From IMG/VR virus record IMGVR_UViG_2579778941_000001: a stretch of DNA of 64,000 bases. The stretch is one strand, 5' to 3'. This DNA is from a virus (lineage: Duplodnaviria; Heunggongvirae; Uroviricota; Caudoviricetes). Position numbers and translations under genes: made by a program. The notes under the pieces are model-generated. The model worked only from the letters and a program-made list of their open reading frames with translations, made no database searches and had not been told where the DNA came from. Below are positions 24,506-59,305 of the stretch, in pieces. Numbering within the stretch: the stretch's first letter is position 1; each line of letters starts with the position of its first letter.

Positions 24506-24506
24506 T

Positions 24507-28606: not shown

Positions 28607-28858
28607 GTGTCAGATCGAAATATAGCAGCTAAAAGCCAGGAAGAGCGAGACAAGGTGAACGTAGACCTTGCCGCCAGCGGCGTTGCTTACAAAGAACGGC
28701 TGAATATACCTGTGATTGCAGAGCAGGTGGCTCGTGAGCAACCGGAAAACCTGCGCGCCTATTTCATGGAACGGCTACGGCACTACCGGCAGTTAAGCCT
28801 CCAGTTGCCAAAAGGGAGCGATCCGGTGTATCAGAACGAGGATGCACCAAAAAAATAA
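28607..28858 (+). CDS. hot: DNA polymerase III theta-subunit homologue
   Basis: [36 protein letters not shown] aligns closely with E. coli HolE; GTG start with GGAGG RBS. Confidence 0.85.
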
Positions 28859-28981
28859 CGGCAAGATGGGGGAGAAATGTGATTAGCCCCCAGCGTGGCG
28901 CGCCTACAAACCCCGCTTTCACAAACTATGCCTTTTCAATGTATACTGTATGAATAAACAGTATCATTGAGGTAAAACGCT

Positions 28982-31388: not shown

Positions 31389-31841
31389 ATGTTACTTAAC
31401 TGGCAGGGACGCCACTTCATGGAAATAAATCACTCACGAATAACATCGTACGAGATTGCGGATTACATGATCCGCACTAAATCTCTTCTATCAGCGAAAG
31501 AACTCGCAGCAATTCTTGAAAAGGAATACCCGCATCTGGATGTCGATAAGCGCGATGTTTATCTGCGCTTAAAGGCTATCGCTGTGTCTAAGTATTCGTC
31601 TGTTTTGATTGATGACAGTACACGCCCACGTAGATTTCAGATCCACTCTCTGAATCCTGAATTCTTTCGCCGCAGCCGCGCTCCGCGCCGGTTTGATGAA
31701 AAACTCCAGAACGAACTCTATATGACGCAGGACGAAAAGGAACGCCGGGAGCACCAGCCTTGGGTGATGGCGCGTCAACTTTTCAATAAGGTGGTCCGTC
31801 AGCACCGTCATTACGGTAATGCCACATCCGCACGTATCTGA
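31389..31841 (+). CDS. lpa: Late promoter activator (assigned by position immediately upstream of pacA and C1-controlled promoter)
   Basis: Synteny with P1 lpa-pacA-pacB; operator upstream; no motif check possible. Confidence 0.5.
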   Translation: MLLNWQGRHFMEINHSRITSYEIADYMIRTKSLLSAKELAAILEKEYPHLDVDKRDVYLRLKAIAVSKYSSVLIDDSTRPRRFQIHSLNPEFFRRSRAPRRFDEKLQNELYMTQDEKERREHQPWVMARQLFNKVVRQHRHYGNATSARI

Positions 31842-39666: not shown

Positions 39667-39722
39667 ACGTCAATGCATTAGGGTATACTTCTCCGTAGAA
39701 CTATAAGTAAATGGAGTAAGTA

Positions 39723-41027
39723 ATGAGCGAGTATATAGAAATTGCCTATGCAGCAGCTACACATAGGCTGTGCTTTCTTACAGGCACTGGATTTTCAAAG
39801 GCTGTTTCTGATGATAAAGCCCCAAGTTGGCAATCTTTATTGGAGCAACTGTGCGGTTTATTGAAGGATGGTGACTCACTCAAAGAGGAATTATTTCCTG
39901 ATGGAAAAGCAAAAGACCTTAGCCTTGAAGAGGCTGCTCAGGTTATTGCACTAAAATTTATACTTTCGGGGAAAAATATTTACCAGGAGATTGAGAAAAT
40001 CATAGCCTCAATCGAACTTGATCCATCAATTGAATATATTCAAGACTTTTTCAAAGAAAACACATTTAAAGTAATTACGACAAATTATGACAAGTTAGCA
40101 GAAAAACTGGCTGGAGAGAATCGAACGTGTACAATCACCCCCGGCCTGCCAATTCCAAAATATAATTGTGAGGTTAAAGTCTACCATGTTCACGGCTCTA
40201 TAGACTCCCCATCAGATATGGTTGTTACTAGCGAGGATTATTTCAGATTTATAAATGGTAATTCTTACTTTTCAAATAAACTAAGCACAGTTCTACATGA
40301 AAACACTATTGTTATTCTTGGCTATTCTCTAAGTGACGCGAACCTCAAGGCGATTATAAATGAATATAAGGTATTTTCACGGGACAACGTAATGTCCTCC
40401 AATATTTTCCTTATTTCCCGAGGAAAACTATTGCAACCTATTAAAGATTACTATTTTTCCTGCTTTGGGATTAGGGTTATAGATAAAACAGAGGTGTCTG
40501 ATTTCTTTAGAAAACTTAACAAGAAAATTCCAGAAGCAAAAAAAATAAAAGACAAATTGAGGCACTCAATCAAATCGGTAATAAAAAACGGAAGAGAGTA
40601 TAAAATAGAGTTCTTGAAGTTAGAGGATTCTTTTTATCATATCATTTCCTCCATTTCATCATCTGGATATAGCTGGAATGATGAAAAGGTATTAAATGTT
40701 TTTTGTGATATAATAGATAAAAAAATAGATCTTACTAAAGAGTCTGGCGCATGGGAGCAGTATGAACACCTGGCAAAATGGCTTATTTATTTCGGTAGTT
40801 TATTTGAAGTAAAAGGAACCAACTTTGAGAAAAAATACATACATGCGGTTGAACACTCAATGACTTATATGAATAAACCTTACGAAACAGGCTACTCATG
40901 GCGAGCATATCTAGCCTGGAAAACAAAATGGCCTTCACTGACAGCATCTAACCGCTCTCTTATTAAGAGTAAGATGGAAGAAATCCCGCTACAACAGATT
41001 CACGATATTATATCTAAGTTTATATAG
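39723..41027 (+). CDS. SIR2-like NAD-utilising domain protein (defence-type SIR2 motifs) with about 200-aa uncharacterised helical C-terminal domain; candidate single-gene antiphage effector
   Basis: Motifs FLTGTGFS (Rossmann GxG), ITTNYD (catalytic Asn about residue 121), VYHVHGS (catalytic His about 157), ILGYSLSD; GGAG RBS 6 nt upstream; gene is strikingly AT-rich versus flanks (by eye). Confidence 0.85.
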   Translation: MSEYIEIAYAAATHRLCFLTGTGFSKAVSDDKAPSWQSLLEQLCGLLKDGDSLKEELFPDGKAKDLSLEEAAQVIALKFILSGKNIYQEIEKIIASIELDPSIEYIQDFFKENTFKVITTNYDKLAEKLAGENRTCTITPGLPIPKYNCEVKVYHVHGSIDSPSDMVVTSEDYFRFINGNSYFSNKLSTVLHENTIVILGYSLSDANLKAIINEYKVFSRDNVMSSNIFLISRGKLLQPIKDYYFSCFGIRVIDKTEVSDFFRKLNKKIPEAKKIKDKLRHSIKSVIKNGREYKIEFLKLEDSFYHIISSISSSGYSWNDEKVLNVFCDIIDKKIDLTKESGAWEQYEHLAKWLIYFGSLFEVKGTNFEKKYIHAVEHSMTYMNKPYETGYSWRAYLAWKTKWPSLTASNRSLIKSKMEEIPLQQIHDIISKFI

Positions 41028-41035
41028 TATATTTA

Positions 41036-41064
41036 TCTCCGGCCTAATCTCCCTAGGCCGGAGA
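41036..41064. terminator. Bidirectional terminator hairpin (TCTCCGGCC-loop-GGCCGGAGA) between SIR2 gene and lxc
   Basis: 9-bp perfect stem, 11-nt loop. Confidence 0.55.
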
Positions 41065-41068
41065 GTTC

Positions 41069-41317
41069 TTAATCAGCATTCAGGAGCAATGCGTTATCTA
41101 TGATGATCTGCTCCCATTCCTCGAATGCCCGATCGCGGACGCCCTGGGGAACGCTGTTAGTTTTGAAATCGACGACCGTCCGCCATTTTCCGTCCGGACG
41201 GTACATGCGCAGAGCTTTACTTCCCCCTTCCCTGCGCACCTCAACGTTATGCTTGTCAGCAAACTCTTGTAATGCTCGTAGCGTCCCATGCTTTACTGTG
41301 TAGTATCGCTTTTTCAA
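41069..41317 (-). CDS. lxc: Small protein downstream of ulx (Lxc-like position)
   Basis: 82-aa ORF; position ulx-lxc as in P1. Confidence 0.4.
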   Translation of the reverse strand: MKKRYYTVKHGTLRALQEFADKHNVEVRREGGSKALRMYRPDGKWRTVVDFKTNSVPQGVRDRAFEEWEQIIIDNALLLNAD

Positions 41318-41754
41318 GTTTTCTCTCCAGCCTGTGCTAAGGCTTCAACTTCCAAATCGTAAGACTCAAACTCATAGTCCTGGTCGTCAACCTCTTCAGG
41401 CACTGGCAGTAAATGCCAGGCTGAGTATATCTGACCATTATCAAAACGCTCCTGGCTGTAGAGCGTCGCGGCTATGAGTGTCAGCGCCGGGCGGTCATAA
41501 CGGTAAATTTTGCGAACGTCACGGTCAACGAGACGACCGAAATTACCATAACCGCGCTCCAGTAATAATTTTTTAATTTCCGGCCAGTATGGGCCATAGC
41601 TGCGGTACAGGCGGGGATTTTTCAGTAATCGCCCGCGTAGCCCTGACAGGAAGAAATCAACGTATTCGTCTTCTGTCTTTCCTAACAATGCCGTACGCAG
41701 TACCGCCTCAAGATATGTTTTATTCGGTTTTATTGTATCAGATAGTGTGGCCAT
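41314..41754 (-). CDS. ulx: Ulx (upstream-of-lxc) protein, Dar-system associated
   Basis: 146-aa ORF immediately downstream of darB in same orientation. Confidence 0.5.
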   Translation of the reverse strand: MATLSDTIKPNKTYLEAVLRTALLGKTEDEYVDFFLSGLRGRLLKNPRLYRSYGPYWPEIKKLLLERGYGNFGRLVDRDVRKIYRYDRPALTLIAATLYSQERFDNGQIYSAWHLLPVPEEVDDQDYEFESYDLEVEALAQAGEKT

Positions 41755-41787
41755 ATTATGCGACGCCCGGCGAACCGGGCGCTCCTG

Positions 41788-44700
41788 TTATGCGTATTGT
41801 TGGATGACGGCCAGAACGTCCGCCACGTTGTGTTTTGTCTCGATAATCCACCAGTTACCCGGGAAATCGCTGTTCTTCGCCTTCGCTGGCAGCCAGCGAG
41901 CGCCGAATTTCGCCTTGATTGCGTCTTTCGCACGGAAAAGAACGCCTTTCATGCCTGAGGCTTCCTGAAGCCCAAATACCTCGCCAGCAGCGAATTTTGG
42001 TGCGTACATCATCTTCAGGTCGGCGGTGGATACGCGATAATTCAGACCAAGAGACTGAGCTATGCTGGTGGCATCACCCTGTATTGATGATAACTCTTCT
42101 TGTTTCTCGTTTCTGGCGGCAATTTCTTCCTCCGTGATGTTGCCAAGGGCCAGGTTTATCCGATCAGCGTCGGCCTGTTTCTCTTCATCGGTGCGTCCGG
42201 CAAGAACCGTGTTAACTCTCTGCAATATCTCCACATGATTCTTGCGCATGCTGAGCAATTCCGGCGTAACCTCGTTAAGATCCACCAGCCCAAGGATGGC
42301 AAGGTCGGAAAACATTGATACCAGGTTGTAGGTCATGCGATAGCTGAGTTGACCATAGGCTGATGGCAACTTCACCGCATCCATTTGATAGGCATCCATA
42401 AATTTAGAGCCGTCGTTTACGACATCCGCAATTGCCGGTGTGATTTTTCCTGTGGTGGCGGCCTCCCTGATTGCTGTTACCCACGATTGAGTCAGCGCGG
42501 CGACTGCATGATTCAGATTGGCTTTCCGTTCTGCTGCAATGCGCGCACTTGCTGCGTCCATTGCCTGCTTGATCTCGTCTTTATTGCTGTAAATGCCAAT
42601 GGTGCCAAACTGTGCTGTGGTGATCTCATAATCTGACGCCCGGAACTCATTGGTACCGAAAATGGCATTGGTGACTTCAAGTTCAGAATCCCCGTTACGA
42701 GTAGACCCCTGGCTTGTTTTTTCCGGCATTCTGGCGATCGCATCCGCTATTTTCTCCTGAATTGCTTCAGGGGATAGCGTATCTCCGTATGACGCGATTA
42801 CATCGCCATAATTGGAGCCAAACAATTCAACCAGGAATGTTTCTGCCGAACGGATCTGGCGGTTATTCCCTTCCGACATCATACCAAGCACCCATTTTGC
42901 AATTGACGACTTCAGCGCGCCGTCACGGCGATCCGGGTAAACCGCATGCTTCAGTGGGTCCGTATAGGTGCCAACAAAATCAATGCTATAGCCTGACTCT
43001 GTAGTCTGAACGCCGTATGAGTCAGTGATTTTGATCATGCCGCGCTGCTGGAAACGGTAGAAATCGTCACAGGAAATGATGTCGTTAATCCCGGCGATGG
43101 AGACGCCACCACTGATTTTCTGCATAACAGCATCTTCATCGGGAGTTACATCCACCTGTTTATCCAGCGTCTTCACATCCCAGTTACCCGATTTGGTGCC
43201 TTTGAAGGTAAAGATGATCTCCACGTCTGCGCGCTGGCTGTCGAAGTCCAGCGACTTAATGCGAACGATATCACCGGCACAATCGTAGTATTGGCCTACA
43301 CGCCATGAGCGATCGCCGATAACAAGGAACTCACTCGCATGGTTAACCAGGTCAGGATCTACATCCAGAATGCCTTTATTTATTGCATCCTCCACCAGCG
43401 GGCGCAGGCGTTTGATATCCGTCGCGGCCTTCTGAGTACGGTTCAATAATTTCTCATAGCGGGAGATGGCTTGAGAGATATTAGCCTTGCGCTGAATGGC
43501 GCTTTTCAACGACGCGCGATACTGTGCTAACAACATACGGTCTGTGTGATGGACACTCCCCCAGCGGGCCTTCCAGTCTGCGTTATCCGCTGCCTTGGCC
43601 ATTGCCGCCTGTTTGAATTTAGCTACCTCGGCGGTGGTCTTTTCAAGTTCCGCTTTGCTTCGCTCTAATTCAGCGGTAAGTACCTCCACATCCTCGCCAG
43701 CTGCGTGCTGCGCCTTGATGTAGTTCTGAAGGTCGATAGTAGCCTGTTCTTTCTGGCGAGCGCGTTGCGCGGCTTTCGCCTTATCCATTTGAACCTGCAT
43801 CATTGCCAGACGTTCGCCATCATCCTTAGCGGTATACATCTGCATTTCGATCATATCGTTGGCGTCGGCGTTCTCCATTTCAGACTTATCTGAGCGGAGG
43901 ATATCGGAGATCCAGCCTGCTTTACGCTTCAGCGTCTTCAGTCGGTATTCATCGAAAGAACCCTTGCCGCAGTAGTAGTGAACGCGAACGCTTGCACGGT
44001 TGGAACCAACTCGGGCACCGCGACCGTTACGCTGTGCGATACTGGCTGGTGTCCATGGCAACGTCAGATGATGGATGTCAGTCGTTCCTCGATGCAGGTT
44101 GATACCCACCTCTGCCTTTTTGTTGCAGATGATGATCGGAGTCCGGCCCTCCTGGAAGTCGGCAGCAATCTTTTCCAGCCCACCCAGCGACATTTCATTT
44201 TGCTGCGCGATATAGGCGTCATACAGAGCCATTTGCTCGTTGTATTTCGCTATCTGTGCATCTGTTGGTTCATCCGGTAGCTCTTTCGGTGGTTTAACCG
44301 CTTTCAGTTTCTTACCGGTTTTACCTGCCTCGGCAACCGTCTGAGCATTCAGGATCCCCACCTTTGAAGGTTCAAGGTTAAGAGCATTGCAGATAATGCG
44401 CTTGAGCTTCTGGTGTTGCGTTTTTTCATCGGTGAAGATGATTTGCTTACCTTCCGGGAAAAACTCCTTCAGCGTGGCAATCAGCTTCGCGTATTTGGGC
44501 GTAACGGGGTGAGTTACGGTCTGTTCGTCAATGCCAAACTTGGCCAGGCGCTTATTCACTTCCGGCTCAAATGCTTCCGGTACCTGCAACTGAATAAACT
44601 CGCCCTTATCTATCAGGGAGTATTGCGATTGCTGCGTGATCGAATCATCACTGTCGTCGTCTTCGCTGGTGGCTTGTTTAGGCAAACTGTCCGCCAGCTG

Positions 44701-47700
44701 CTGCACCGCATCGGCGTACTCCGGCAGGAAACGATAGGTGATCCTGCGATAGTACAGGTCCATGTCAGTACATACGCGGTCCATATCCCTGATTATTGAG
44801 AAGATCGGACGGGCTTTCTCGTGCTCAATCACGCCGTCTTCATTGACCGAGGTCGTTACGCCATTGTTGGCTTTGGCTGCCGCTTCCGCCTGCTGACGCA
44901 ATTCTTCATACGCCGCCAGTTGTTCTTCCGTAAGTGGTGCATCCTGCTGGTGTTCGTCCAGTTCCGGGATCTCCACGGTATCCTTAACGTCTTCCGCCGT
45001 TTTAAGCGTTGTCCAGCGATGGAATATGCCGCGCAGCGCATCAAGGTTTTCAAAGCCCACCAGCGCCATTTTTTCTTCAACTTCACCGCTGATTTTCTGT
45101 ACCGTTTCCAGCCTGGTCTTGCCGAAGAATTTTACGAAGTCATCAGGACTGTAGATCCCCATCTTCTGCCAGTATTCCTTCGGCAGAACATGAGAAAGCA
45201 TGTTGTATGCATCGATCGGGGTGTTAACGACTGGCGTTGCAGTCAGGAGAACCGGTCCGCGCCCACCATTCTTTTTCATCAGGTACGCGTTTTTAATTGC
45301 CATATCCCGCGCCGATTGCGCCACCGCGCTGGTGGGCAGATAGGCCAGTTGTGACGCTTCGCGACCATTTTTATAGCTATTGCGGTAGTTGTGACCTTCG
45401 TCAGCGATCACACTATCGAAGCCCATATCCTCAAAGTACGGATACTTCTCTGCTTTTTCGGTGCCGGTATCTGAATACTCCGACAATACCCGGCGACGCG
45501 CGGCCTCTTTGCGGTGGGAGTCGGAGTCCATTGCGCTGGCTACGCGCCCGGCGGCAACGAAGTCATAAAGCATATCCTGTGCATGCTCATCTACGGTGTC
45601 ATCACGTAGCGGAATGCGGGCGTATTGTTCTTTGGTAAACACGACTGCACGGTAATTTGAGTGCGGGATCGCGTTCATCCGCGCCGTGATAGTGGCTTCA
45701 TCTGCCAGCTTAAGAGCATCGCGCATAACTGGAGTGCCATCAGTACCAAGAACAGGTTTACCGTTCTCATCGAGCACCGGCACCTGGCGAATCTGATCGC
45801 CATCCATCAGCACATCAAGACCGACGAACAGGTAGTTACTGAATGCCTCTTCACTCAGGAATTCTTTTGCTTCGTAATACCAGTTTTCCAGCACTGATTT
45901 AGGCACTACATACGCAGTACGGGTGGAGCGACCGTTCTCATAGTTGAACGCCTCAAGCGCCAGCGCGGTCGTGGTTTTACCCAGCCCGGTGCCGAAGCCC
46001 AGGATGCCGCGCCCATCTTCGGACAGTCGGCGCACCTCGCTATTCTGGTAATCAAATGGCTGGCGCTTACCGCTTAATCCCTTCAACCCAAGCGGATCGC
46101 CAGAGTGTTCATACGGGATATTGCTATTGAACACATCGTTGTATTTGGCAACCAGCTCATCGTAGCGATCGTGCGTCTTGATCCACTTATTGAACTGGTC
46201 CTCAAGCAGTGCCATCTGCTCGCGGTAGCCGTTCGCCGTCGCGCTATCTTTGCCACCGATACGCGCACCATTGAGATACTTTTCCAGCTGTGCCGGGAAC
46301 CCGGTCGCGTTTTCACCTGATTTACGGTCCCACTCGTAGCGGATCTCTCCTGTTTCTTTATCCTTGCGCTGGACGACACCGTATCGGTGCCCGACGAACA
46401 GACCATCACCACCGTGATAGGTGTCAGAAACCATTTCGTCGCCTTCCAGCTGCACTGACTGCACATAGCGAAGATCCGGATAGCCGTTTTCCTGCAAAAA
46501 TTCCAGAATGACGGAACGGTCGAACCAACGGCTATTGAGCTTAAAGCGGATATTCTCTGCTGGCGTCTTGATGCGCTTCTCTTCGATCGCTGCCAGCTGA
46601 TTAAGGACGTTGTTCTTTACTGGACCGTCGGGGAGTGTGGCAAGGAATTCCTGTTTTGGTGCCACTATCTCGTTAATGTCGCCGCTGGTGGCGCGGGCGA
46701 ACGGAACAATCCCGCCATACGGTGAAACCGCAATGCCAGGGGTGCTGGCCAATAAATTAAGCAACTCGTCATCACTGGCTGGCAGTTCGCCGGTAAACGC
46801 AAGGCGGAAATCATCGAGCTGGATTGGATCGCGAGTGAGATCACTGTAGAGATAACGCAGGGTGTCCTGATAGCTGGTGGAGTCATAACTGGCGCTGGAA
46901 TCATGCGTAACCAGTTTTCCTGTCAGCTCGTCAGAAATAGTGCCATCCAGCTTAATTGCACCACGGAAAGCAAACCAGGCGCGCGCACCGCTCCCCGATA
47001 ATTTCGCTATCGGACCGCGACCGGGGTTACCAAAACGGTCAATCTCTGCCTGCAAACGGGATACCAGAGAAAGGCGCTGCTGTTCGATTTGTTCAGCACT
47101 ATGCCCGGCGGCCTTCATGTCCTGATATTCAATTAACATCCGGCCAATCATCGCCCCGCGATACAAGCGTTCACGGTATTTTTCAGGCTGGCTGTTAATC
47201 CAGTCCACCAGCTGCACCATATCGTCGCTGATTGATGTGGTGTACTTATCGCGGACATTTGCCATCTGGGTAAATGTCATACCGAGACGGCCTTCTGTTG
47301 TAGTCAGGTTACGCTGAAGAGCCTCCCAGCTGTCCGCGCCATAACTGGCAACATCAATCTTCAGCTCCTTCCCTGCATCAGCTTCAATCCAGCGACCACC
47401 AACATATTTTTGCCATACGCCATTAATCAGGCGCATTTCCCCTTCATCAACAACGTCTGCGGTCAGTGACGGTTCAGCCATATTGAGCAAAGACCAGTCG
47501 ATACGACTTTCGAAACGATGAATCAGCTTCGCTTTAAGAGCCTGGTTATCAATCTGCCCGTCGGCACGAACCTCAATACGCCCCTGGAATCCCTTCTCCT
47601 GAGTGCCATGAACAAACCGGCGGCCGTCCTTTTCAAACCACTTGCCAGAAATAAACGTTGGCCAAAGCACATTTGCCGATTCAAGAGTGCCTTCATCCAC

Positions 47701-48555
47701 CAGGGGGATTTTCTCAGCCATCTCCGCCGGATGTTTGCGCATCAGCACCACGTCAACGACCGTACTGGTCCCGTTTGCGTCAAAAGTACCGGTAGGCAAG
47801 CGGTGGGCACCAAGAAATTCAGCTTTCCGTGATAGGCGCAGGCGTAACCGCTTCATGTTTGAACCTGAAACAATGGACGGCGGCACAATCACGCACATGA
47901 ATCCGCCTGGCTTTATCTTGTCCAGCATGCGGAGCATGAAGTAAGAACCCATGTCCGTTTCTTCTGCGTAAGGCTTATCGATGTTGCGTGTGTTATCACG
48001 ACCACCGAACGGAACGTTACCCACAACATGGTCGAATGAATCGTTAGGCGTGCTTACAGCCAGCTGTTCGAACGGGGAAATCTGTACGCTGTCTTCCGGG
48101 TGTAACAGCTGGTTTATACGACCGGAAACACTGCTGATCTCAGTCGCAGTCATCACCGTACCAACCGGTTTTGTCTCATTAAAAACGCCGGTGCCCGCCG
48201 ATGGTTCCAGAGTGTTACCTACGTCCGCGCCGTAGAGCTTCATGATCTCCCAGACACCTTCAGCGATCGGCTTTGGTGTGTAATATTCGGAGACGGACCC
48301 GCCAATGCCGCCTTCACCGGTGTACCCAGCCAGGATCTGGCGCTGTTCATCTGTCAGTGTCGCGCCGTCCACCAGCGAATTAAGCAAATCTATCGCCTTC
48401 TGATTCGCCTCCCGGCGCAGTCGGTCATAGCTTTTGCCTTCCACCTTTTCCACGCCGTATTTAATCGGCGCTCGGTGAGATGTTATTGCCCTAATGTATT
48501 TCAATATTTCGCTGACACTTGAACAGCGAAACACCCCCATAGATAGCTTGTTCAT
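41788..48555 (-). CDS. darB: DarB antirestriction protein: N-terminal N6-adenine MTase-like domain fused to SF2/SNF2-type helicase
   Basis: 2255 aa (same length as P1 DarB as I recall); MTase motifs EPSAGTGVF and GNVPFGG; helicase Walker A GFGTGLGKTT, DEGH box VIADEGHNY, motif VI QRNGRGARVG. Confidence 0.9.
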   Translation of the reverse strand: MNKLSMGVFRCSSVSEILKYIRAITSHRAPIKYGVEKVEGKSYDRLRREANQKAIDLLNSLVDGATLTDEQRQILAGYTGEGGIGGSVSEYYTPKPIAEGVWEIMKLYGADVGNTLEPSAGTGVFNETKPVGTVMTATEISSVSGRINQLLHPEDSVQISPFEQLAVSTPNDSFDHVVGNVPFGGRDNTRNIDKPYAEETDMGSYFMLRMLDKIKPGGFMCVIVPPSIVSGSNMKRLRLRLSRKAEFLGAHRLPTGTFDANGTSTVVDVVLMRKHPAEMAEKIPLVDEGTLESANVLWPTFISGKWFEKDGRRFVHGTQEKGFQGRIEVRADGQIDNQALKAKLIHRFESRIDWSLLNMAEPSLTADVVDEGEMRLINGVWQKYVGGRWIEADAGKELKIDVASYGADSWEALQRNLTTTEGRLGMTFTQMANVRDKYTTSISDDMVQLVDWINSQPEKYRERLYRGAMIGRMLIEYQDMKAAGHSAEQIEQQRLSLVSRLQAEIDRFGNPGRGPIAKLSGSGARAWFAFRGAIKLDGTISDELTGKLVTHDSSASYDSTSYQDTLRYLYSDLTRDPIQLDDFRLAFTGELPASDDELLNLLASTPGIAVSPYGGIVPFARATSGDINEIVAPKQEFLATLPDGPVKNNVLNQLAAIEEKRIKTPAENIRFKLNSRWFDRSVILEFLQENGYPDLRYVQSVQLEGDEMVSDTYHGGDGLFVGHRYGVVQRKDKETGEIRYEWDRKSGENATGFPAQLEKYLNGARIGGKDSATANGYREQMALLEDQFNKWIKTHDRYDELVAKYNDVFNSNIPYEHSGDPLGLKGLSGKRQPFDYQNSEVRRLSEDGRGILGFGTGLGKTTTALALEAFNYENGRSTRTAYVVPKSVLENWYYEAKEFLSEEAFSNYLFVGLDVLMDGDQIRQVPVLDENGKPVLGTDGTPVMRDALKLADEATITARMNAIPHSNYRAVVFTKEQYARIPLRDDTVDEHAQDMLYDFVAAGRVASAMDSDSHRKEAARRRVLSEYSDTGTEKAEKYPYFEDMGFDSVIADEGHNYRNSYKNGREASQLAYLPTSAVAQSARDMAIKNAYLMKKNGGRGPVLLTATPVVNTPIDAYNMLSHVLPKEYWQKMGIYSPDDFVKFFGKTRLETVQKISGEVEEKMALVGFENLDALRGIFHRWTTLKTAEDVKDTVEIPELDEHQQDAPLTEEQLAAYEELRQQAEAAAKANNGVTTSVNEDGVIEHEKARPIFSIIRDMDRVCTDMDLYYRRITYRFLPEYADAVQQLADSLPKQATSEDDDSDDSITQQSQYSLIDKGEFIQLQVPEAFEPEVNKRLAKFGIDEQTVTHPVTPKYAKLIATLKEFFPEGKQIIFTDEKTQHQKLKRIICNALNLEPSKVGILNAQTVAEAGKTGKKLKAVKPPKELPDEPTDAQIAKYNEQMALYDAYIAQQNEMSLGGLEKIAADFQEGRTPIIICNKKAEVGINLHRGTTDIHHLTLPWTPASIAQRNGRGARVGSNRASVRVHYYCGKGSFDEYRLKTLKRKAGWISDILRSDKSEMENADANDMIEMQMYTAKDDGERLAMMQVQMDKAKAAQRARQKEQATIDLQNYIKAQHAAGEDVEVLTAELERSKAELEKTTAEVAKFKQAAMAKAADNADWKARWGSVHHTDRMLLAQYRASLKSAIQRKANISQAISRYEKLLNRTQKAATDIKRLRPLVEDAINKGILDVDPDLVNHASEFLVIGDRSWRVGQYYDCAGDIVRIKSLDFDSQRADVEIIFTFKGTKSGNWDVKTLDKQVDVTPDEDAVMQKISGGVSIAGINDIISCDDFYRFQQRGMIKITDSYGVQTTESGYSIDFVGTYTDPLKHAVYPDRRDGALKSSIAKWVLGMMSEGNNRQIRSAETFLVELFGSNYGDVIASYGDTLSPEAIQEKIADAIARMPEKTSQGSTRNGDSELEVTNAIFGTNEFRASDYEITTAQFGTIGIYSNKDEIKQAMDAASARIAAERKANLNHAVAALTQSWVTAIREAATTGKITPAIADVVNDGSKFMDAYQMDAVKLPSAYGQLSYRMTYNLVSMFSDLAILGLVDLNEVTPELLSMRKNHVEILQRVNTVLAGRTDEEKQADADRINLALGNITEEEIAARNEKQEELSSIQGDATSIAQSLGLNYRVSTADLKMMYAPKFAAGEVFGLQEASGMKGVLFRAKDAIKAKFGARWLPAKAKNSDFPGNWWIIETKHNVADVLAVIQQYA

Positions 48556-48566: not shown

Positions 48567-48587
48567 AACAAGTGACTAGTGTTAAAT
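48567..48587 (+). promoter_or_regulatory. Late-promoter-like element upstream of prt (AACAAGTGACTAGTGTTAAAT)
   Basis: Motif shared with 15201-15224 (minus), 31868-31890 and 52302-52310 (minus). Confidence 0.5.
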
Positions 48588-48621
48588 TCCGTTCAAACAC
48601 GATGTGAATTATTCTAATTAA

Positions 48622-51352
<2,731 letters not shown>

Positions 51353-53056: not shown

Positions 53057-53734
53057 ATGAATAACATGACAACGAAAGAGCTTTTGACGGCACTTCCAAA
53101 ATACAAAAGCCATAAAACAGTTCGCGCCTCAAAAATCAAAGATATCGAAATTATCGCCCTAATGGATGTGGTCCTTTTTTGCAACATCGAAGTCGTTGAG
53201 CCAGAAGGGGTAAAAGTCCATGTTGATAAAATATTTTTGCAAAAACACCGACCAGAAATTGGCGGATATCTGGTCGCTTATGAGGACGGATCTCTGTCCT
53301 ATTCACCAGAAAAAACATTTGAAGAAGGCTTTAGTCGGACTAACGACTTCTTCGAAAATGGGGTATCGCTCAGCATTGAAGGTCACAATGGGGTGACATT
53401 CATTACAGCCAGGGACGTAACTATTTCTGCTGGCGGTATCGCTACTCTACAAGAAGAAATCGACCTTGAAGCAGCCGACTTTTCTGACGCGCTGATGTGG
53501 CTGAAGGATGGCAAGAAAGTTGCCCGACGCGGGTGGAACGGCGAAAACCAATTCTGCTGGCTGGTTCCTGAAGGACAGTACCCGGCACGAATGGAAGCCA
53601 TTAAGGGATATTTCCCCGGCGACCTCGTTCCGTATGGTGCTTATTTCGCCTTAAAAAATGCACAAGGTGTAGTTGTTCCGTGGGTGCCTTCTGTAGGCGA
53701 CTTACTGGCATGTGACTGGTTTGTAGTGGAGTGA
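53057..53734 (+). CDS. Two-domain protein; C-terminal about 85 aa resembles DUF2829 (Tad2-like) small phage proteins
   Basis: GAGGAAAG RBS before ATG 53057; C-terminus FSDALMWLKDGKKVARRGWNGENQFCWL...VGDLLACDWFVVE fits my recollection of the DUF2829 pattern (F-x-EAL...K-x-GKK-V-x-R-x-GWNG ... DW-x-VxE). Confidence 0.45.
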   Translation: MNNMTTKELLTALPKYKSHKTVRASKIKDIEIIALMDVVLFCNIEVVEPEGVKVHVDKIFLQKHRPEIGGYLVAYEDGSLSYSPEKTFEEGFSRTNDFFENGVSLSIEGHNGVTFITARDVTISAGGIATLQEEIDLEAADFSDALMWLKDGKKVARRGWNGENQFCWLVPEGQYPARMEAIKGYFPGDLVPYGAYFALKNAQGVVVPWVPSVGDLLACDWFVVE

Positions 53735-53740: not shown

Positions 53741-54523
53741 GTGGAAAATACTAAAGCAATTCAATACCGCCTGCGTAATGGTCAGAGTGTCGAAGTGACC
53801 ATCAATAATGATGGTGTGCCTGGCGAAAAGGTTTCGATCTCTGATCTGGCTATCGAAAAAACCATCATGTGCCACCTTGGCTTTACTGAAGAAGTGAGCA
53901 AAAAGCATGGTGTAGCAATCTGGAGCGCAATGGATACTGGTATGCACAGATTCATTACTGCTCGTACCCCAGGGATGACCATGATGGACCTCATGCAGAT
54001 TGCGCCGCTGTTTGAATGTGAGCCTTTAGATGTATTCAGCAATCCAGCTATCTGCCAGCAGCTATATGGTGAGATGAAACTCGCGGTTACCCCCATTGTG
54101 CTGCATGAAGGATCGCTTGCTGGCGTGTGGAAAGTGGAGCGTATTTCAAGCTACATGCCTTTCCATGTCAACGGCGTAATCACTGGTGAAAATCAACCTG
54201 TTTCCGTTATAAAGTCAGACCTCAAGCGCGCAATTCTTGAAGCAAGTTGTCGAGTTGTCGGCCTGGGCAAACAGTCTTATGTTTCCTTCCCGGCTGGCCC
54301 TGAAGGCCCGGCAGAAATTCTGATTATGGATGCCGATCTGCTATGGCAAATACAGTTTCTGATTGGCAAAAGCATCATCCGCGCTGAAGAACTCGATCAG
54401 TACATTACCTGCACGATGACGGATGAAGTCAAAAGTGTGGCTATAGCCAATGCCCGGAACCTATGTCGTGCTGCATTAACAGAACTGCAAGAAAACACCA
54501 CGGAAGAGGTGGAAAGTGATTAA
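53741..54523 (+). CDS. Hypothetical protein
   Basis: 260-aa ORF (GTG start) between the DUF2829-like gene and the terminase paralogue. Confidence 0.4.
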   Translation: MENTKAIQYRLRNGQSVEVTINNDGVPGEKVSISDLAIEKTIMCHLGFTEEVSKKHGVAIWSAMDTGMHRFITARTPGMTMMDLMQIAPLFECEPLDVFSNPAICQQLYGEMKLAVTPIVLHEGSLAGVWKVERISSYMPFHVNGVITGENQPVSVIKSDLKRAILEASCRVVGLGKQSYVSFPAGPEGPAEILIMDADLLWQIQFLIGKSIIRAEELDQYITCTMTDEVKSVAIANARNLCRAALTELQENTTEEVESD

Positions 54524-55610
54524 TCGTAAACAGAATGAATCTGCCTGGTTAGCACTGATAGAACGGTATAAAGACAATTGGGAACTGGCAGCAAAAGAGT
54601 TGCTTGATATTGAGTTAACACCTCATCAAGCAAAAATTATTAACGCGATAAAGAACACCGGAGCCAAAGTCACTGCCACCACACCACATGGTATTGGGGA
54701 AACCTCTATTGTGGCAGTGATTAGCATCCTGCAAACAATACTGTATTCGTGTTCCCGTACAGTGGTTGTTTCTCCTGCGATTAACGATAGTCGAAAAACA
54801 ATAATTGACTATATGTTCCGTTATTGGGAGCGAGTTACCCAAAAACACCCTTTTCTTGGCAATTATTTCAGAATACACCCTGACAAAGGGTTGGTGCATA
54901 TCAGTGAAACATGGGGATGCGTCTATATAACCTATTGTCTGAATAACGAAGAGTCTCTGGCTGGTTTTACTGGACCGCACGATCTTTTCATCGTTATTAA
55001 CTCGGCGGAAATCAGCGATCGCGCTCATGCAGTGATAACTGGCAATTTAACCAATTATGACTCGCGCCTGCTGTTGCTGTCGAAACCATCGGAACGCGAG
55101 AAAGGGTACTTTTATGATTCGCATCACCGGTTGGCCCATAGTAAAAACAATCCTGCTGGTTTTTTCACGGCGATAACTCTAAACACAGAGGATTCACCTC
55201 TCGTTTCTGAAGCATATCTTGAATTCAAAGCCAAAGAGTTTGGTGGGCGCAATAGCGATGAATATCGCCGATTGATCTTGGGGAAATTCCCCGGGATTCG
55301 GGAGTTGATGGAAAAGTCATCTGTTCCCCGTAATATGCACTTCACAATGACTGACGGTAGTAAATGGGTAGTGCCTACGATCGTGATCGCCAAACACCAT
55401 GCGAAACATCACGCTCAAAAACACAACTCCAGCACATTAGACTGGCTGAAGGCCTATACAATACCGTTATTCTCGGCAAACCATAACGCTATAACTGAAT
55501 GGGCTAAACAAATCCCCTGGCAGGATGTGGCTGAAGAGGCATTTGTCGAAAAACCACCAAGAGATTTGCACGAGCACTGTTGGCTGACATCAGAAAAAAG
55601 CTTCTCGTGA
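54516..55610 (+). CDS. Terminase-large-subunit (PacB) ATPase-domain paralogue with degenerate Walker A/B motifs and no nuclease domain
   Basis: Colinear similarity to PacB of this window ([12 protein letters not shown] vs [12 protein letters not shown]; LLLLSKPSERE vs [11 protein letters not shown]) but Walker A is PHGIGETS (no Lys) and Walker B is LFIVINSAEIS. Confidence 0.65.
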   Translation: MINRKQNESAWLALIERYKDNWELAAKELLDIELTPHQAKIINAIKNTGAKVTATTPHGIGETSIVAVISILQTILYSCSRTVVVSPAINDSRKTIIDYMFRYWERVTQKHPFLGNYFRIHPDKGLVHISETWGCVYITYCLNNEESLAGFTGPHDLFIVINSAEISDRAHAVITGNLTNYDSRLLLLSKPSEREKGYFYDSHHRLAHSKNNPAGFFTAITLNTEDSPLVSEAYLEFKAKEFGGRNSDEYRRLILGKFPGIRELMEKSSVPRNMHFTMTDGSKWVVPTIVIAKHHAKHHAQKHNSSTLDWLKAYTIPLFSANHNAITEWAKQIPWQDVAEEAFVEKPPRDLHEHCWLTSEKSFS

Positions 55611-55641: not shown

Positions 55642-55950
55642 TCAATATACGATCTGGTCTACATGATCACCAAAATCATCGTCGTCGTCCTCATCGCCAC
55701 CATCTACTGCTGGCCAATCAACAAACCAGCCAGCGTAAAGATGCAGCGTTCGGAGAACATCACTTGCGGGAGCATCAAGGGTGTTAACGAATCCCATATA
55801 GCTATTGGGATTTGCCCCAGCTATGGCTTCAGCGATCATGTCCTCGGTAATGTCACCGGAGATAATGCTTAAACGCCCGGAAACTTCTTCATTATCATCA
55901 AATTCGATAATGGCATCTCCACCTAATGGCGCTGCGATTTTAATCTGCAT
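55642..55950 (-). CDS. Small acidic protein, last gene of dar operon
   Basis: 102 aa with DGGDEDDDDDFGD tail. Confidence 0.35.
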   Translation of the reverse strand: MQIKIAAPLGGDAIIEFDDNEEVSGRLSIISGDITEDMIAEAIAGANPNSYMGFVNTLDAPASDVLRTLHLYAGWFVDWPAVDGGDEDDDDDFGDHVDQIVY

Positions 55951-58927
55951 TATTTAGCTCCTTTGCCACACCTAATAACAGTTCCAGCAATCCGTCACCA
56001 TTCATCAGTGATGCGGCAGCGGCCTCTTTGTCATGATACAACTGAAGAGCCATAGAGAATACTTCCGTTGCTGACGTTTTGGAAATAGTCGGTGATTTCT
56101 GCCGAATTTTCCCGGTGTTACTTACTGAGGCTGGCGGGTATACCTTCGCCATATAAATATTACTCAATCGAGATCTGAAGCACCATTCAGGCTTGCCACG
56201 CCCACCGATATTGACGAAAGATGGCTTATCCCCTTCAACATTGGCCTTCAGGAATGACCGGGCTTTCTCTAACAAACCAGGGTTACTGTACTCAAGATGA
56301 TGACCCAGCTCGTGCCACAGTGCACTTGCATTTTCATCGTTCAAATTGACAGCAACAACACCATTTAGATTTGCATATGCCCTTCCCTGGTGGTGAACTA
56401 CCTTTGATAAGGTCGATATTTTCCCGCCAGTCAGGCGATAAATATCAGCAAGTTCCTTGCGCAGGTCTATCCCACCATTCTGTCCAGCGCGGGCTTCTTC
56501 CACTTCTTCTGTGATAAAAGAGTCGGCCCACTCAAGAGCTTTTTCTTCAGATACGGATGAGTTTGCGATCGCACTGTTCATGGCAGATAACACTTTCTCG
56601 TGGACCGAACCCATACTTCGCTGATTCATTTGCCAGCGTGTCTGCGGGTTATATGAGAATCGCTTAAGTAGTTGGTCAAGCTGCTCAAGTTCTTCTTCAC
56701 TGACATACTTTTTAGCCTCACCAATAATGCCAGGGAGAATATTGCCGTTAGGATTAAACGCTCGCGAAAGGAAGAGTTTCAGCGCCCCCATGCCCTCCGA
56801 TGCTTCAATATCACCAATAACCCGGTTAACAATGGCCGCACTCTTCGGATTAGCATCTGCCAACGCTCTGGCTACGATTTGCAGGGACGATACGACCTCA
56901 CGCTGCATATCAGTCCTGATCTCATCAATAAACTCTGGCGTTATGCCGTGCTCTTTAAGGATATCCCGGCCTTCCGCCGTTACCCCATCGATATCACCGA
57001 CATGTTTATTAACACGACTTTGCAATGCCTTAAATGCCTTCAGAATTCCACGGGCATCATCCGCTTTACTAACGGCCTTCCTGAATGCTGGCAAGAAGTC
57101 TGAGTTAACCTCATTTTGTTGATCGGCCCACTGAATGGAGGCTTCTTTCATCTCGTCCAGAGTCAGATCACCCAACGCGGTATGGTCTGTGAATATGAGC
57201 GACAACCTCTGAACCATTTCTGCCAATGGTGATGCCGAATGCGCCGCGCTAAGGAATGCTTTCACCCTGGTTGGGCGAATGGAAAACCAGTCAATAGCTG
57301 GTGGCATATCTCCGTTTTTTATCGCCTGCGCTATCTCGTCAAAGCCATCGCGCCCAAGGGAGGATGCGTGATTTAACAAGCCGCGAAGTAACGAATTGCT
57401 GATACCGAATAATCGGCACCATTTTTTCACGTCGGCAACAGGCATTCGAACAAAATGCGCAAGCACTTGTACAAGCTGTTCATCCTGGGGATCTGTGCGG
57501 GAAAGCAGCCTGATCAGATGAATAATGTCTTTGATGCCGGATGCCCGATGTAATAGCAAACTGGTATACGGAGCAACACCGTTGTAACTACCGCCGGAAA
57601 CGGACTCGAAAAGACCGCCGGATATCCCTTGCATGCCTTCGTTTTCCAGTTCCTGAGACACCTGGCGAAGGATATCCTGTAACGACACATCGCCGCCGCC
57701 AAACATATCCCCCAGCGCCTGGCCCTGGTGCTGTAACTCATCATTGATACGTTGAGCCATCAACTTAAAGGCGGTGGCCATACGCTTCGCGCTACGGTTA
57801 TTCGCGACGATGAACAACGCGAGTGCTTTCACTTCCGGGGCCGTTTCGCTGAACATATCCCCCTGAGCAATAACATCGGTAATATGCTGGCCTGACTCCT
57901 TCGATTGCCTTACCAGGTCTACCGCATCTTTCAATGCCGCCAGCGCCTTTTTATCGAGGCAATCCGCTGTCTCAATGCCATCAACAATAGTTGTCACAGC
58001 CTGCTTGTGCGCTTCTCCTGATAAAGCCTGCATCTGGACAAAATCATTGGCTGCCGCATTAAGCGCCGTCAGAACATTACGCATATCCGGATCAGGTTCT
58101 TCTGCAACCATCCTTACCAGGCGCGCATCCTTATATGCCTTGGCAAAGATCGCGTTTTGTATACGGTCTACAAGTTGCCGTGTTGGTCGCCCATCTTCAG
58201 TTACAAGGCCAGCCGCCTGTGTGGCACCAACTTGCGTCATAAATCCGCGAATAAACGCGTCATTACTGCGGCTAAGCAGATCTCCGCTTTCTGACGGGTT
58301 AAAAAGCGCCATCATCGCCGGTGTTATGCTGTCGGCATCAACAAAAGCTTTTTCACTGGCTGCCATTTCCTGAAGATCAGAAATATTTGAGTCCTTGGCA
58401 AACTGAACGCGGTCAACCTTAGTTAACCGGCGGCGCACCAGTACCGGAGCCGTCATTGATTCAACCTTTTCAGGAGGTATGCCGAATTCGGTCGCATGTT
58501 CAATCAGGTACTCACGATACCGATCCGCATTGCCGTCCTGATAGGCTTTGATGATCCCCATGGTCCGTCCATTACCTGACTCAACGGCATTGTCCTCACC
58601 AATTATCGGCGCACCATGGCTGGATAAACCGGAATCAGTAAGCTGAGCTGGCCGCAAATCTTTGGATATCTGGTTAACCTGAAGAAGGCTGGATGCGCGG
58701 GTCCGGTCGCGCGGCTGAAGTTCCTGGGGATAGTCAGGATTAATTTTCCCATCCAGAGTATTGGATACCAAAAGAGCTGAGGCATCGACGATATCAAACG
58801 CTGTTTTTACCTCGTCTCCCTTCGCTGTCACCACATACGAAACCCGCCCATAATCGGGCAGGTTCTTTAGCAGCTCGATCAGCGTTTCTATGCTGGTGGC
58901 CATTACCACCTGATCGCTTAAGCTCAT
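55940..58927 (-). CDS. ddrB: DdrB-like large virion-associated Dar protein
   Basis: 995-aa ORF downstream of darA-ddrA; assignment by P1 operon order hdf-darA-ddrA-ddrB. Confidence 0.55.
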   Translation of the reverse strand: MSLSDQVVMATSIETLIELLKNLPDYGRVSYVVTAKGDEVKTAFDIVDASALLVSNTLDGKINPDYPQELQPRDRTRASSLLQVNQISKDLRPAQLTDSGLSSHGAPIIGEDNAVESGNGRTMGIIKAYQDGNADRYREYLIEHATEFGIPPEKVESMTAPVLVRRRLTKVDRVQFAKDSNISDLQEMAASEKAFVDADSITPAMMALFNPSESGDLLSRSNDAFIRGFMTQVGATQAAGLVTEDGRPTRQLVDRIQNAIFAKAYKDARLVRMVAEEPDPDMRNVLTALNAAANDFVQMQALSGEAHKQAVTTIVDGIETADCLDKKALAALKDAVDLVRQSKESGQHITDVIAQGDMFSETAPEVKALALFIVANNRSAKRMATAFKLMAQRINDELQHQGQALGDMFGGGDVSLQDILRQVSQELENEGMQGISGGLFESVSGGSYNGVAPYTSLLLHRASGIKDIIHLIRLLSRTDPQDEQLVQVLAHFVRMPVADVKKWCRLFGISNSLLRGLLNHASSLGRDGFDEIAQAIKNGDMPPAIDWFSIRPTRVKAFLSAAHSASPLAEMVQRLSLIFTDHTALGDLTLDEMKEASIQWADQQNEVNSDFLPAFRKAVSKADDARGILKAFKALQSRVNKHVGDIDGVTAEGRDILKEHGITPEFIDEIRTDMQREVVSSLQIVARALADANPKSAAIVNRVIGDIEASEGMGALKLFLSRAFNPNGNILPGIIGEAKKYVSEEELEQLDQLLKRFSYNPQTRWQMNQRSMGSVHEKVLSAMNSAIANSSVSEEKALEWADSFITEEVEEARAGQNGGIDLRKELADIYRLTGGKISTLSKVVHHQGRAYANLNGVVAVNLNDENASALWHELGHHLEYSNPGLLEKARSFLKANVEGDKPSFVNIGGRGKPEWCFRSRLSNIYMAKVYPPASVSNTGKIRQKSPTISKTSATEVFSMALQLYHDKEAAAASLMNGDGLLELLLGVAKELNNAD

Positions 58928-58939: not shown

Positions 58940-59305
58940 TTATGCTGCCTCTTTAATGTTGGCGGCTATCCATGCCGCCGTGTGCTGTTTAACCTGGTCC
59001 AGGTCGATGTATGTGCCAACATATTGACTCAAATCCTGCAAGGTACCGATAAATGCATCGGTGCTCTGATCGACGAATTTATCAGCCAGGAAATCAGCAA
59101 CCAGTTTTGGCACACCATCATGTACCGAAGGTTGTTTTTCCTCGCCACTACTGCCGCCGGACACACCGTACCCCATCTGTTGCATGATCTGGTCAATTTC
59201 ATCGCTGATATCCAGCAACTCCATGCCACTCGCGGTAGCCGCTTTGGACATCAGAGCATCCAACTTATCGCTGAGATCCATTAACTCAATAGCTGATAGT
59301 GTCAT
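58940..59305 (-). CDS. ddrA: DdrA-like protein
   Basis: 121-aa ORF between darA and ddrB. Confidence 0.5.
   Translation of the reverse strand: MTLSAIELMDLSDKLDALMSKAATASGMELLDISDEIDQIMQQMGYGVSGGSSGEEKQPSVHDGVPKLVADFLADKFVDQSTDAFIGTLQDLSQYVGTYIDLDQVKQHTAAWIAANIKEAA

Follow-up and report, generated by a model that had tools for sequence, protein, structure and literature searches.

Two loci orthologous to the phage P1 Dar antirestriction system in a P1-like phage-plasmid

The darB-ulx locus

The gene darB (41788-48555, minus strand) encodes a protein of 2255 aa that combines an N6-adenine-MTase-like region with an SF2/SNF2 helicase and is 98.85% identical in amino acid sequence to DarB of phage P1. 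It lies in a window (the whole stretch of DNA analysed, ~64 kb) that, on sequence grounds, is from a P1-like (Punavirus) phage-plasmid; about two-thirds of the element falls within the window and about one-third outside it. The adjoining gene, ulx (41314-41754, minus strand), encodes a 146-aa Dar component that is 98.6% identical to P1 Ulx and matches the PHROG family "Ulx-like anti-restriction" with 222 bits. The GC-rich hairpin spacer that runs from the darB stop to the ulx start (41755-41787, minus strand) has the same sequence as in P1, as do the three lxc promoters (P1-3lxc) nested in ulx. On its other side, darB is separated from the divergent gene prt by an intergenic region of 75 bp, again wholly identical to P1. 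This short region holds both PdarB, the predicted sigma-70 promoter of darB (48611-48641, minus strand), and LPpro (48570-48588, plus strand), each with no mismatches to its P1 counterpart.

The domain organization of DarB is well defined. Pfam matches, all exceeding the curated cut-offs, place N6_Mtase/Eco57I at residues 145-290, SNF2-rel_dom/ResIII at 833-911 and Helicase_C at 1455-1517, and the PHROG family "DarB-like antirestriction" matches the MTase region. Motifs of both activities can be read from the sequence: EPSAGTGVF as the AdoMet loop (residues ~117-125) and NVPF at 180 as a motif IV variant, followed by the helicase motifs GLGKT (857), DEGH (1052), TATP (1105) and QRNGRGAR (1508). 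No close solved structure was found for DarB, its PDB sequence matches being only weak ones to type I M subunits, including EcoKI HsdM (E ~1e-4).

DarB differs from its P1 counterpart by 26 substitutions, and the codon differences comprise 87 synonymous and 26 non-synonymous changes. The substitutions cluster at residues 287-392 and 1901-2062, with H287D and S289G at the boundary of the MTase match. These clustered changes may alter the set of type I enzymes that DarB counters. The capsid-targeting signal of DarB consists of its first 30 residues (PMC9024508); because the first substitution occurs at residue 287, this signal is identical to that of P1.

The hdf-darA-ddrA-ddrB late unit

The second locus, also on the minus strand, begins with LPdar (62610-62628), an Lpa-dependent late promoter identical to the annotated P1 site at 19 of 19 positions. 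The unit opens with lydA (62252-62581; 100% protein identity to P1) and lydB (61812-62255; 98.6%), and is closed by hxr (55642-55950; 98.0%), an Xre-like ORF overlapping the 3′ end of ddrB, in the order given by the P1 annotation. Between them, hdf (61223-61834) encodes a 203-aa protein that is 98.5% identical to P1 Hdf, carries a DarA_N domain (Pfam, 76.9 bits) and is classed as Hdf-like by PHROG. The next gene, darA (59302-61221), encodes an internal head protein of 639 aa with DarA_N and DarA_C domains and 98.4% identity to P1 DarA. It scores 1095.7 bits against the NCBIfam equivalog NF052326, "antirestriction phage head protein DarA" (cut-off 350), and 1385.8 bits against the PDB entries 9ukm/9vz0, "Defense against restriction protein A". 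The 121-aa Dar component encoded by ddrA (58940-59305) has five substitutions (95.9% identity to P1) and is DdrA-like by PHROG. Finally, ddrB (55940-58927) encodes 995 aa with an N-terminal ParB-like domain (Pfam ddrB-ParB, 135.1 bits) and 99.0% identity to P1 DdrB. Nested within it on the opposite strand is iddB (57975-58373, plus strand), whose product is 100% identical to that of P1.

Helper genes of the system are found elsewhere in the window. The prohead protease gene pro (50333-51352, plus strand; 99.4% identity to P1 Pro) and lpa (31389-31841, plus strand; 99.3% identity to P1 Lpa), whose product is the late promoter activator needed for LPdar, are as well conserved as prt and iddB, the four products being 99-100% identical to those of P1.

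The interval between the darB-ulx and hdf-darA-ddrA-ddrB loci contains an ORF (53057-53734) homologous to Tad2 (anti-Thoeris). Two further ORFs of 260 and 364 aa, located between ssb and hxr, gave no Pfam or PADLOC match.

Orthology with the Dar system of phage P1

Hdf, DarA, DdrA, DdrB, Ulx and DarB constitute the virion-packaged Dar system (PMC9024508, PMC12810830). Its two-locus layout is present here, with darB-ulx-lxc opposite prt, and lydA-lydB-hdf-darA-ddrA-ddrB-hxr under LPdar. Megablast against P1 gives 98.3% identity for the darB-ulx locus and 98.6% for the second locus, and a chance match is excluded since each locus is covered to 100% at E = 0. All annotated P1 promoters that were checked around the two loci, including LPdar and PdarB, are base-for-base identical. 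Taken together, the identity, the intact motifs and promoters, and the conservation of Lpa and Pro identify the genes as the six-protein Dar system of P1, and both loci almost certainly form its orthologue in a P1-like phage-plasmid, where they are expected to function as in phage P1.

An earlier note on this DNA had placed the six genes from the open reading frames; all six were found where it put them, on the minus strand. Its description of a 2255-aa protein with N6-MTase-like and SF2 helicase motifs agrees with both the Pfam domains and the sequence motifs, and the kinship it proposed with P1 DarB, DarA, DdrA, DdrB, Hdf and Ulx is borne out by alignment (95.9-99.0% identity at equal lengths). 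Lack of homology to the P1 Dar proteins, which the note had named as its refutation, is decisively contradicted by the same alignment. It was right about the genes and order of an "hdf-darA-ddrA-ddrB operon" and too narrow in its extent: these four genes form the middle of the lydA-lydB-hdf-darA-ddrA-ddrB-hxr unit under LPdar.

Beyond the Dar loci, whole-window comparison revealed a gene order collinear with P1 throughout. The first such comparison used as reference OP279344, a laboratory derivative of P1 from which res/mod has been deleted. Relative to this reference, a 7.9-kb "insertion" was called at 21298-29220. This figure is unreliable, because the segment contains hot/humD-like genes and 54-57% of it is shared by P7, RCS47 and SJ46; it was rejected, and the segment is retained only as a mosaic region.

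Assembly and function of the Dar proteins

By orthology with P1, the Dar proteins of this element would be packaged, ejected and active against restriction, and the steps below apply the P1 literature (PMC9024508, PMC12810830) on that basis. During late lytic growth, Lpa would switch on LPdar, leading to transcription of lydA-lydB-hdf-darA-ddrA-ddrB, while darB-ulx would be expressed from a separate promoter region of its own, facing prt. Hdf and DarA form pairs on the inside of the capsid, and the loading of all other Dar proteins needs Hdf (PMC12810830). Such pairs would attach to the inner face of the procapsid at the penton-hexon junctions, with 55 pairs per head. The Pro protease, which cleaves the DarA N-terminus and is a trans-acting requirement of the Dar system (PMC12810830), would then trim DarA. 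Hdf and DarA would scaffold the stepwise loading of DdrA, DdrB and Ulx; in P1, DdrB aids the addition of DarB to the capsid and Ulx aids its incorporation. The P1 head receives DarB after all other Dar components, and here the 250-kDa protein would likewise enter last, in ~40 copies, via its N-terminal 30-residue targeting signal.

Upon infection, the Dar proteins would exit the head together with the DNA and guard any packaged DNA against restriction by type I enzymes. EcoK/EcoB would be countered by DarB, Ulx and DdrB, and EcoA-type enzymes by DarA and DdrA; the virion table for P1 names DdrA as antagonizing EcoA restriction (PMC9024508). DarB putatively acts on the entering DNA through its MTase and helicase.

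Cryo-EM revealed 55 DarA-Hdf pairs bonded to both capsid and DNA, and in that study the pairs are proposed to contribute to assembly and stability (PMC12810830). It is conceivable that hdf and darA are selected primarily for capsid morphogenesis, in setting the size of the head and keeping it stable, and that their antirestriction function is secondary. Such a role is compatible with the Dar role and does not exclude it, and as the primary explanation it seems unlikely.

Degeneration of P1-like phage-plasmids to plain plasmids or integrated prophages is documented (PMC10879196), and the third of the element outside the window bears on whether this one still forms a phage. Nevertheless, the six Dar ORFs, lydA/B, prt, pro, lpa and the promoters are all intact, the pattern of substitutions in the Dar genes indicates purifying selection, and the collinearity with P1 extends across the genes for packaging, tail and lysis in the window. 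It is thus very improbable that this is a defective P1-derived plasmid whose Dar genes are inert leftovers, with no apparatus assembled. Least tenable is the reading of DarB as the MTase-helicase of a resident defence system of the DISARM DrmD, BREX PglX or Dpd kind instead of an injected antirestriction protein: PADLOC and NCBIfam return weak, domain-level matches to DrmD, ZorD, DpdE, PglX and type I/II MTases, and its only PDB sequence matches are the type I M subunits noted above, but these assignments were rejected at scores far under the family thresholds (DrmD 44.9 bits vs 610; DpdE 31.4 vs 500), the partner genes of DISARM, BREX and Dpd are absent next to darB, and orthology to P1 DarB, itself experimentally characterized and detected in virions, effectively refutes it.

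Orthology with the P1 Dar system therefore remains the preferred reading of both loci. Its practical value lies in the recognition of the window as a P1-like phage-plasmid and in correct names for genes that are auto-annotated as "hypothetical protein" or "N-6 DNA methylase" in the nearest plasmid.

The SIR2 gene in the mat-lxc interval

Next to the darB-ulx locus, and outside the Dar system, the window carries a cargo gene (39723-41027, plus strand) for a 434-aa protein with a SIR2_2 domain (Pfam, 83.8 bits; cut-off 24.5). The gene sits in the mat-lxc interval, the position occupied by EcoP1I res/mod in P1. Its cassette of 1.4 kb (~39667-41068) has a GC content of 35.7% vs 48-52% in the flanks. 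Elsewhere, the same interval holds type III R-M in P1 and P7 and a hypothetical gene with an HTH gene in Ro157c2YLVW, and is empty in RCS47; the mat-lxc interval beside Dar is evidently a cargo-swap site. The earlier note had remarked that a SIR2 protein, in place of EcoP1I, is the resident defence gene beside Dar. This stands at the sequence level. Its designation as a defence gene goes further, the scores against ThsA, Dsr1, Dsr2 and PDC-S25 being domain-level only. The configuration itself is not unusual: at least 65 deposited plasmids have a SIR2 gene annotated between mat and lxc, and the arrangement occurs in 65 of 5426 complete E. coli genomes.

Residues Asn121 and His157 of the SIR2 protein align with the catalytic residues of ThsA/DSR2 and are invariant in 30 homologues. 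With a SIR2_2 domain and both catalytic residues, the protein has the predicted features of a generic SIR2-domain NADase effector. The AlphaFold model (pLDDT 83) has an all-helical C-terminal half. In a Foldseek search with this model, all 50 of the matches listed are defence sirtuins (DSR2, ThsA or KomC), and among them the SIR2 domain fold is closest to DSR2. The family is widespread and uniform in length. In E. coli it is found as cargo at prophage ends, and in Pseudomonas next to Gabija-like genes.

Assignment to a named system was tried and rejected. Thoeris ThsA fuses its SIR2 domain to a SLOG (gcADPR-sensing) domain and is encoded beside a TIR-domain ThsB; here, ThsA profiles match only residues 118-222, and the gene is flanked by mat and lxc, no TIR gene being present. 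For DSR1 and DSR2, a protein should have ~1000-1200 aa and exceed the threshold of the NCBIfam equivalog, and the scores here are 30.6 bits for Dsr2 and 21.2 for Dsr1 vs a cut-off of 1400. Since only the SIR2 domain matches, the protein is no member of ThsA, DSR1, DSR2 or PDC-S25.

Literature searches gave no match for the protein accession (WP_000006034) and, with P1-like, SIR2 and phage-plasmid as subjects, no paper describing the SIR2 gene; a DefenseFinder-based survey of P1 phage-plasmids leaves SIR2 unmentioned. The role of the gene is presumably defensive. The chances are roughly even that this stand-alone, 434-aa "mini-DSR2-like" sirtuin serves P1-like prophages as a one-gene abortive-infection defence that depletes NAD+. 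As cargo of a documented swap site, the SIR2 gene is a reasonable candidate for defence assays.

Comparison with known systems

DSR2, ThsA and KomC are the top matches of the SIR2 protein in both sequence and structure. It shares with them the SIR2 fold and both catalytic residues (Asn and His), and like them has a GxG loop in the N-terminal part and a C-terminal extension made up of helices. It differs from DSR2 in size (~1000 aa vs 434 aa) and from KomC in that no KomA/B partners are present, and it is not Thoeris, because it has neither a SLOG domain nor a ThsB/TIR partner.

For the Dar genes, the comparison is one of close and distant relatives of a known system. Dar-Ddr was found in every P1/D6 phage-plasmid examined by a 2025 survey (bioRxiv 10.1101/2025.09.12.675607), and the system has been studied in P1 by genetics, virion proteomics and, in 2026, cryo-EM. 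The Dar genes described here are thus an already known and ordinary finding; the two loci have little discovery value, and nothing novel remains for Dar itself. DarB-like modules occur in the "polyvalent proteins" of phages and conjugative elements (PMC5512222), and DarB-like genes of Cronobacter phage JK004 and phage D6 are each 79% identical, the latter over a short stretch only. All of these share the same antirestriction module of MTase plus helicase. They are distant homologues, whereas darB of the window is a near-identical P1 orthologue and no new variant. Far closer are the Dar loci of P7, SJ46, RCS47, vB_EcoM-Ro157c2YLVW and the plasmid pMB9698_1 (NZ_CP103469), which are 97.7-99.9% identical in DNA along their entire length. 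The plasmid pMB9698_1 also has the same order mat-SIR2-lxc-ulx-darB, but is without the Tad2-like insertion.

Compared with P1 itself (NC_005856), the six Dar genes have the same lengths, order, strand and overlaps, their proteins align without gaps, the promoters are identical and the flanking genes lxc, prt, pro, lydA/B and hxr are the same. The differences amount to 56 scattered amino acid substitutions in total over the six proteins, an inter-locus interval that is without IS1/isaB and has the Tad2-like gene and the 364-aa ORF, and the mat-lxc slot, which holds the SIR2 gene here and EcoP1I res/mod in P1.

Dar genes and their identity to phage P1

Six minus-strand open reading frames encode the proteins of the Dar (defence against restriction) system at two loci. 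The first holds ulx (41314-41754; 146 aa) and darB (41788-48555; 2255 aa), the second ddrB (55940-58927; 995 aa, with a ddrB-ParB domain in Pfam), ddrA (58940-59305; 121 aa), darA (59302-61221; 639 aa, DarA_N and DarA_C) and hdf (61223-61834; 203 aa, DarA_N). The earlier note had placed all six, and its coordinates match the six-frame ORF list exactly. It had also claimed methyltransferase-like and SF2 helicase motifs for the 2255-aa protein, and both are present by Pfam and by motif reading. DarB carries N6_Mtase/Eco57I (residues 145-290), SNF2-related/ResIII (833-911) and Helicase_C (1455-1517) domains, each above its curated threshold. Its sequence, read directly, contains the AdoMet loop EPSAGTGVF (about residues 117-125), the motif IV variant NVPF at residue 180 and the helicase motifs GLGKT (857), DEGH (1052), TATP (1105) and QRNGRGAR (1508). 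Together, the reading frames, domains and motifs establish the observation as real and exclude chance.

Megablast against deposited phage genomes matched 100% of both Dar loci, with 98.3% and 98.6% identity to phage P1 (NC_005856) and 97.7-99.3% to P7, SJ46, RCS47, vB_EcoM-Ro157c2YLVW and others. The P1 annotation was retrieved and the window proteins were aligned singly with their counterparts. Homology to the P1 Dar proteins, on which the earlier interpretation hinged, is evident for all six at 95.9-99.0% identity: DdrA 95.9% (5 substitutions), DarA 98.4% (10), Hdf 98.5% (3), Ulx 98.6% (2), DarB 98.85% (26) and DdrB 99.0% (10). Each is equal in length to its P1 homolog, with 0 gaps and 0 internal stops, and identity is 98-100% for the flanking Lxc, Prt, Hxr, LydB and LydA. 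DarA passes the NCBI equivalog "antirestriction phage head protein DarA" (1095.7 bits, cut-off 350) and matches the solved P1 DarA chain (PDB 9ukm/9vz0), while PHROGs families include Ulx-like, DdrA-like and Hdf-like anti-restriction proteins.

Codon differences between the darB alleles are mostly synonymous (87 versus 26 non-synonymous), as would be expected under purifying selection. Nucleotide differences are unevenly spread, peaking at 42388-42987 and 47488-48087, and the amino-acid changes cluster (eight at residues 287-392, four within nine residues at 1901-1909). Such a pattern suggests that darB alleles of P1-like elements have recombined. Since the first substitution falls at residue 287, the N-terminal 30-residue capsid-targeting signal (PMC9024508) is unchanged.

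Regulatory sites and helper genes

Each of the annotated P1 regulatory sites that were checked has 0 mismatches in the window. The late promoter LPdar (62610-62628), upstream of lydA, is identical to the P1 site, as are PdarB (48611-48641) and LPpro (48570-48588), which lie between the divergent genes darB and prt. The same holds for the three lxc promoters within ulx, the C1 operator, the mat late promoter and a GC-rich hairpin in the darB-ulx spacer. The late activator gene lpa (31389-31841) and the prohead protease gene pro (50333-51352) show 99.3% and 99.4% identity to P1, and the nested ORF iddB 100%. The second locus had been described as an hdf-darA-ddrA-ddrB operon; the genes do occur in that order, but they are more exactly the middle of a larger late unit, lydA-lydB-hdf-darA-ddrA-ddrB-hxr. 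Judged by sequence, each part known to be required for Dar is present, intact and nearly identical to P1. A view of the Dar genes as a decayed relic is disfavored by the intactness of all reading frames and promoters and by collinearity with P1 across the window, although it keeps a small probability because the window leaves about one third of the element uncovered.

Mode of action

The P1 head takes up the six Dar proteins stepwise, with all others requiring Hdf and DarA, and DarB (~250 kDa, ~40 copies) is the last to enter (PMC9024508, PMC12810830). Cryo-EM of P1 located 55 DarA-Hdf pairs on the inner capsid wall, at penton-hexon junctions and touching DNA; these pairs are missing in emptied heads, which fits co-ejection, and Pro removes approximately the first 70 residues of DarA (PMC12810830). 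Once ejected, the proteins shield incoming DNA against type I restriction: DarB, Ulx and DdrB counter EcoK/EcoB, and DarA and DdrA counter EcoA-type enzymes (PMC9024508, PMC12810830). By orthology, the proteins encoded in the window would be loaded stepwise, with Hdf and DarA required first and DarB entering last. DarA would likewise be trimmed by Pro, and co-ejection with the DNA would then protect it from type I restriction. The sequence relatives of DarB in the PDB are only type I M subunits, including EcoKI HsdM (E ~1e-4). DarB also matches DrmD, ZorD, DpdE and PglX profiles (PADLOC, NCBIfam), but its assignment to any of these types is rejected, as the matches are domain-level and far below threshold (44.9 bits versus 610 for DrmD) and none of the partner genes of those systems is present.

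A SIR2 gene in the mat-lxc interval

In P1 and P7 the mat-lxc interval is occupied by res and mod, the genes of a type III R-M system, whereas it is empty in RCS47 and carries a hypothetical gene and an HTH gene in vB_EcoM-Ro157c2YLVW. In the window, a cassette of ~1.4 kb (~39667-41068) sits exactly between the mat and lxc stops. P1-like elements swap cargo at this interval. GC content is 35.7% in the cassette and 48-52% on either side of it, and the cassette terminates in a hairpin, TCTCCGGCC...GGCCGGAGA, between the SIR2 gene and lxc, which converge there. Its sole ORF (39723-41027, plus strand) encodes 434 aa with a SIR2_2 domain (83.8 bits). Asn121 (ITTNYD) and His157 (HVHG) correspond in alignments to the ThsA and DSR2 catalytic residues and are invariant in 30 homologs. 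An AlphaFold model of good overall confidence, in both local and global scores, places the SIR2 domain before an all-helical C-terminal half, and all 50 Foldseek matches listed from the PDB are the defence sirtuins DSR2, ThsA and KomC. The protein is a mini-DSR2-like stand-alone sirtuin. Membership in Thoeris is ruled out (no SLOG domain, no TIR partner), as is DSR1/DSR2 (21-31 bits against a cut-off of 1400; 434 aa versus ~1000 aa).

Homologs are uniformly ~434 aa, share 55-61% identity and occur in Gamma- and Betaproteobacteria. Three genomic contexts were sampled. The homolog is the final prophage gene, adjoining the integrase, in E. coli chromosomes and adjoins a Gabija-like pair in Pseudomonas putida; no conserved partner was evident in Pseudoalteromonas. 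The earlier note had named SIR2 the resident defence gene beside Dar. Its position in the P1 res/mod slot stands; for the role itself, the SIR2 domain, catalytic residues, structural neighbors and genomic contexts let us infer, with good support, a defence gene. At least 65 plasmid records contain the mat-SIR2-lxc junction with 99.8-100% identity, as do 65 of 5426 complete E. coli genomes, and the gene is labelled "SIR2 family protein" in them. The arrangement is already deposited, so it is not new. Type III R-M, dGTPase, PrrC and CapRel are the defences that a DefenseFinder-based 2025 survey gives for P1-like phage-plasmids, with SIR2 unmentioned (bioRxiv 10.1101/2025.09.12.675607).

Other differences from P1

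A 684-bp segment not in P1 (53061-53744) lies between ssb and isaA, hence between the two Dar loci. Its Tad2-like ORF (53057-53734, plus strand; 225 aa), preceded by the ribosome-binding site GAGGAAAG, scores 79.6 bits against Pfam Tad2-like. The C-terminal 89 residues match solved Tad2 anti-Thoeris sponges (9eib, 8v3e) over their full length (E = 6e-20), following an uncharacterised N-terminal extension of ~136 aa. The gene is common, occurring in 139 P1-like plasmid records and in phages Ro157c2YLVW, SJ46 and D6, but canonical P1 lacks it, as does pMB9698_1, in other respects the closest plasmid. In the 2025 survey, 56% of P1-like elements carried Tad2 (bioRxiv 10.1101/2025.09.12.675607).

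Dmt (2803-4821, plus strand) is 672 aa in the window versus 1013 aa in P1 record OP279344, where 341 extra codons with Hint and LAGLIDADG domains lie inside the C5-methylase part; the window allele is uninterrupted, and the P1 insertion looks like an intein. Where P1 has tciA-C, the window has a region without a P1 match (6546-7641), flanked by the genes for tRNA-Thr and tRNA-Met and coding for a 275-aa SPFH/Band 7 protein (6796-7623, plus strand). Directly upstream of hxr and ddrB, a 364-aa ORF (54516-55610, plus strand) replaces IS1/isaB; it belongs to PHROG 5902 (unknown function), is weakly similar to a terminase-large-subunit family and has no Pfam or PADLOC matches. Upstream of hot/humD/phd-doc, a mosaic block (21298-29220) holds ead/Ea22-like, DUF4752, DUF551 and small hypothetical genes; how its length compares with canonical P1 is uncertain, as the reference used, OP279344, lacks part of the region. 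The block shares just 40-57% with other phages of the P1 type, and some stretches show 97-98% identity to Stx-converting lambdoid phages, suggesting P1-like/lambdoid exchange. The tail-fibre invertase (63355-63927, minus strand), a resolvase-family recombinase with ~68% DNA identity to P1 cin, is reversed in orientation. Several short tail-fibre cassette ORFs come after the invertase in pMB9698_1, suggesting a different host-range module, shufflon-like in character.

Distribution and comparison with known systems

darB was found in 806 plasmid records (441 near-complete), and the lxc/ulx region in 699 of 5426 complete E. coli genomes. None of the P1 and D6 phage-plasmids surveyed lacked Dar-Ddr (bioRxiv 10.1101/2025.09.12.675607). 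The nearest record, pMB9698_1 (NZ_CP103469; IncY, from an E. coli blood isolate), shares the gene order of the window and has darB at 99.9% identity. Its automatic annotation labels Ulx, DdrA, DdrB, Hdf, Lxc and Prt "hypothetical protein" and DarB "N-6 DNA methylase". Generic labels of this kind hide Dar in most P1-like plasmids on deposit until a comparison with P1 is made. The earlier observation is confirmed and its interpretation as P1 Dar supported: the lineage is a commonly sequenced one of P1-like phage-plasmids, and its Dar genes are the textbook P1 system, hence already known.
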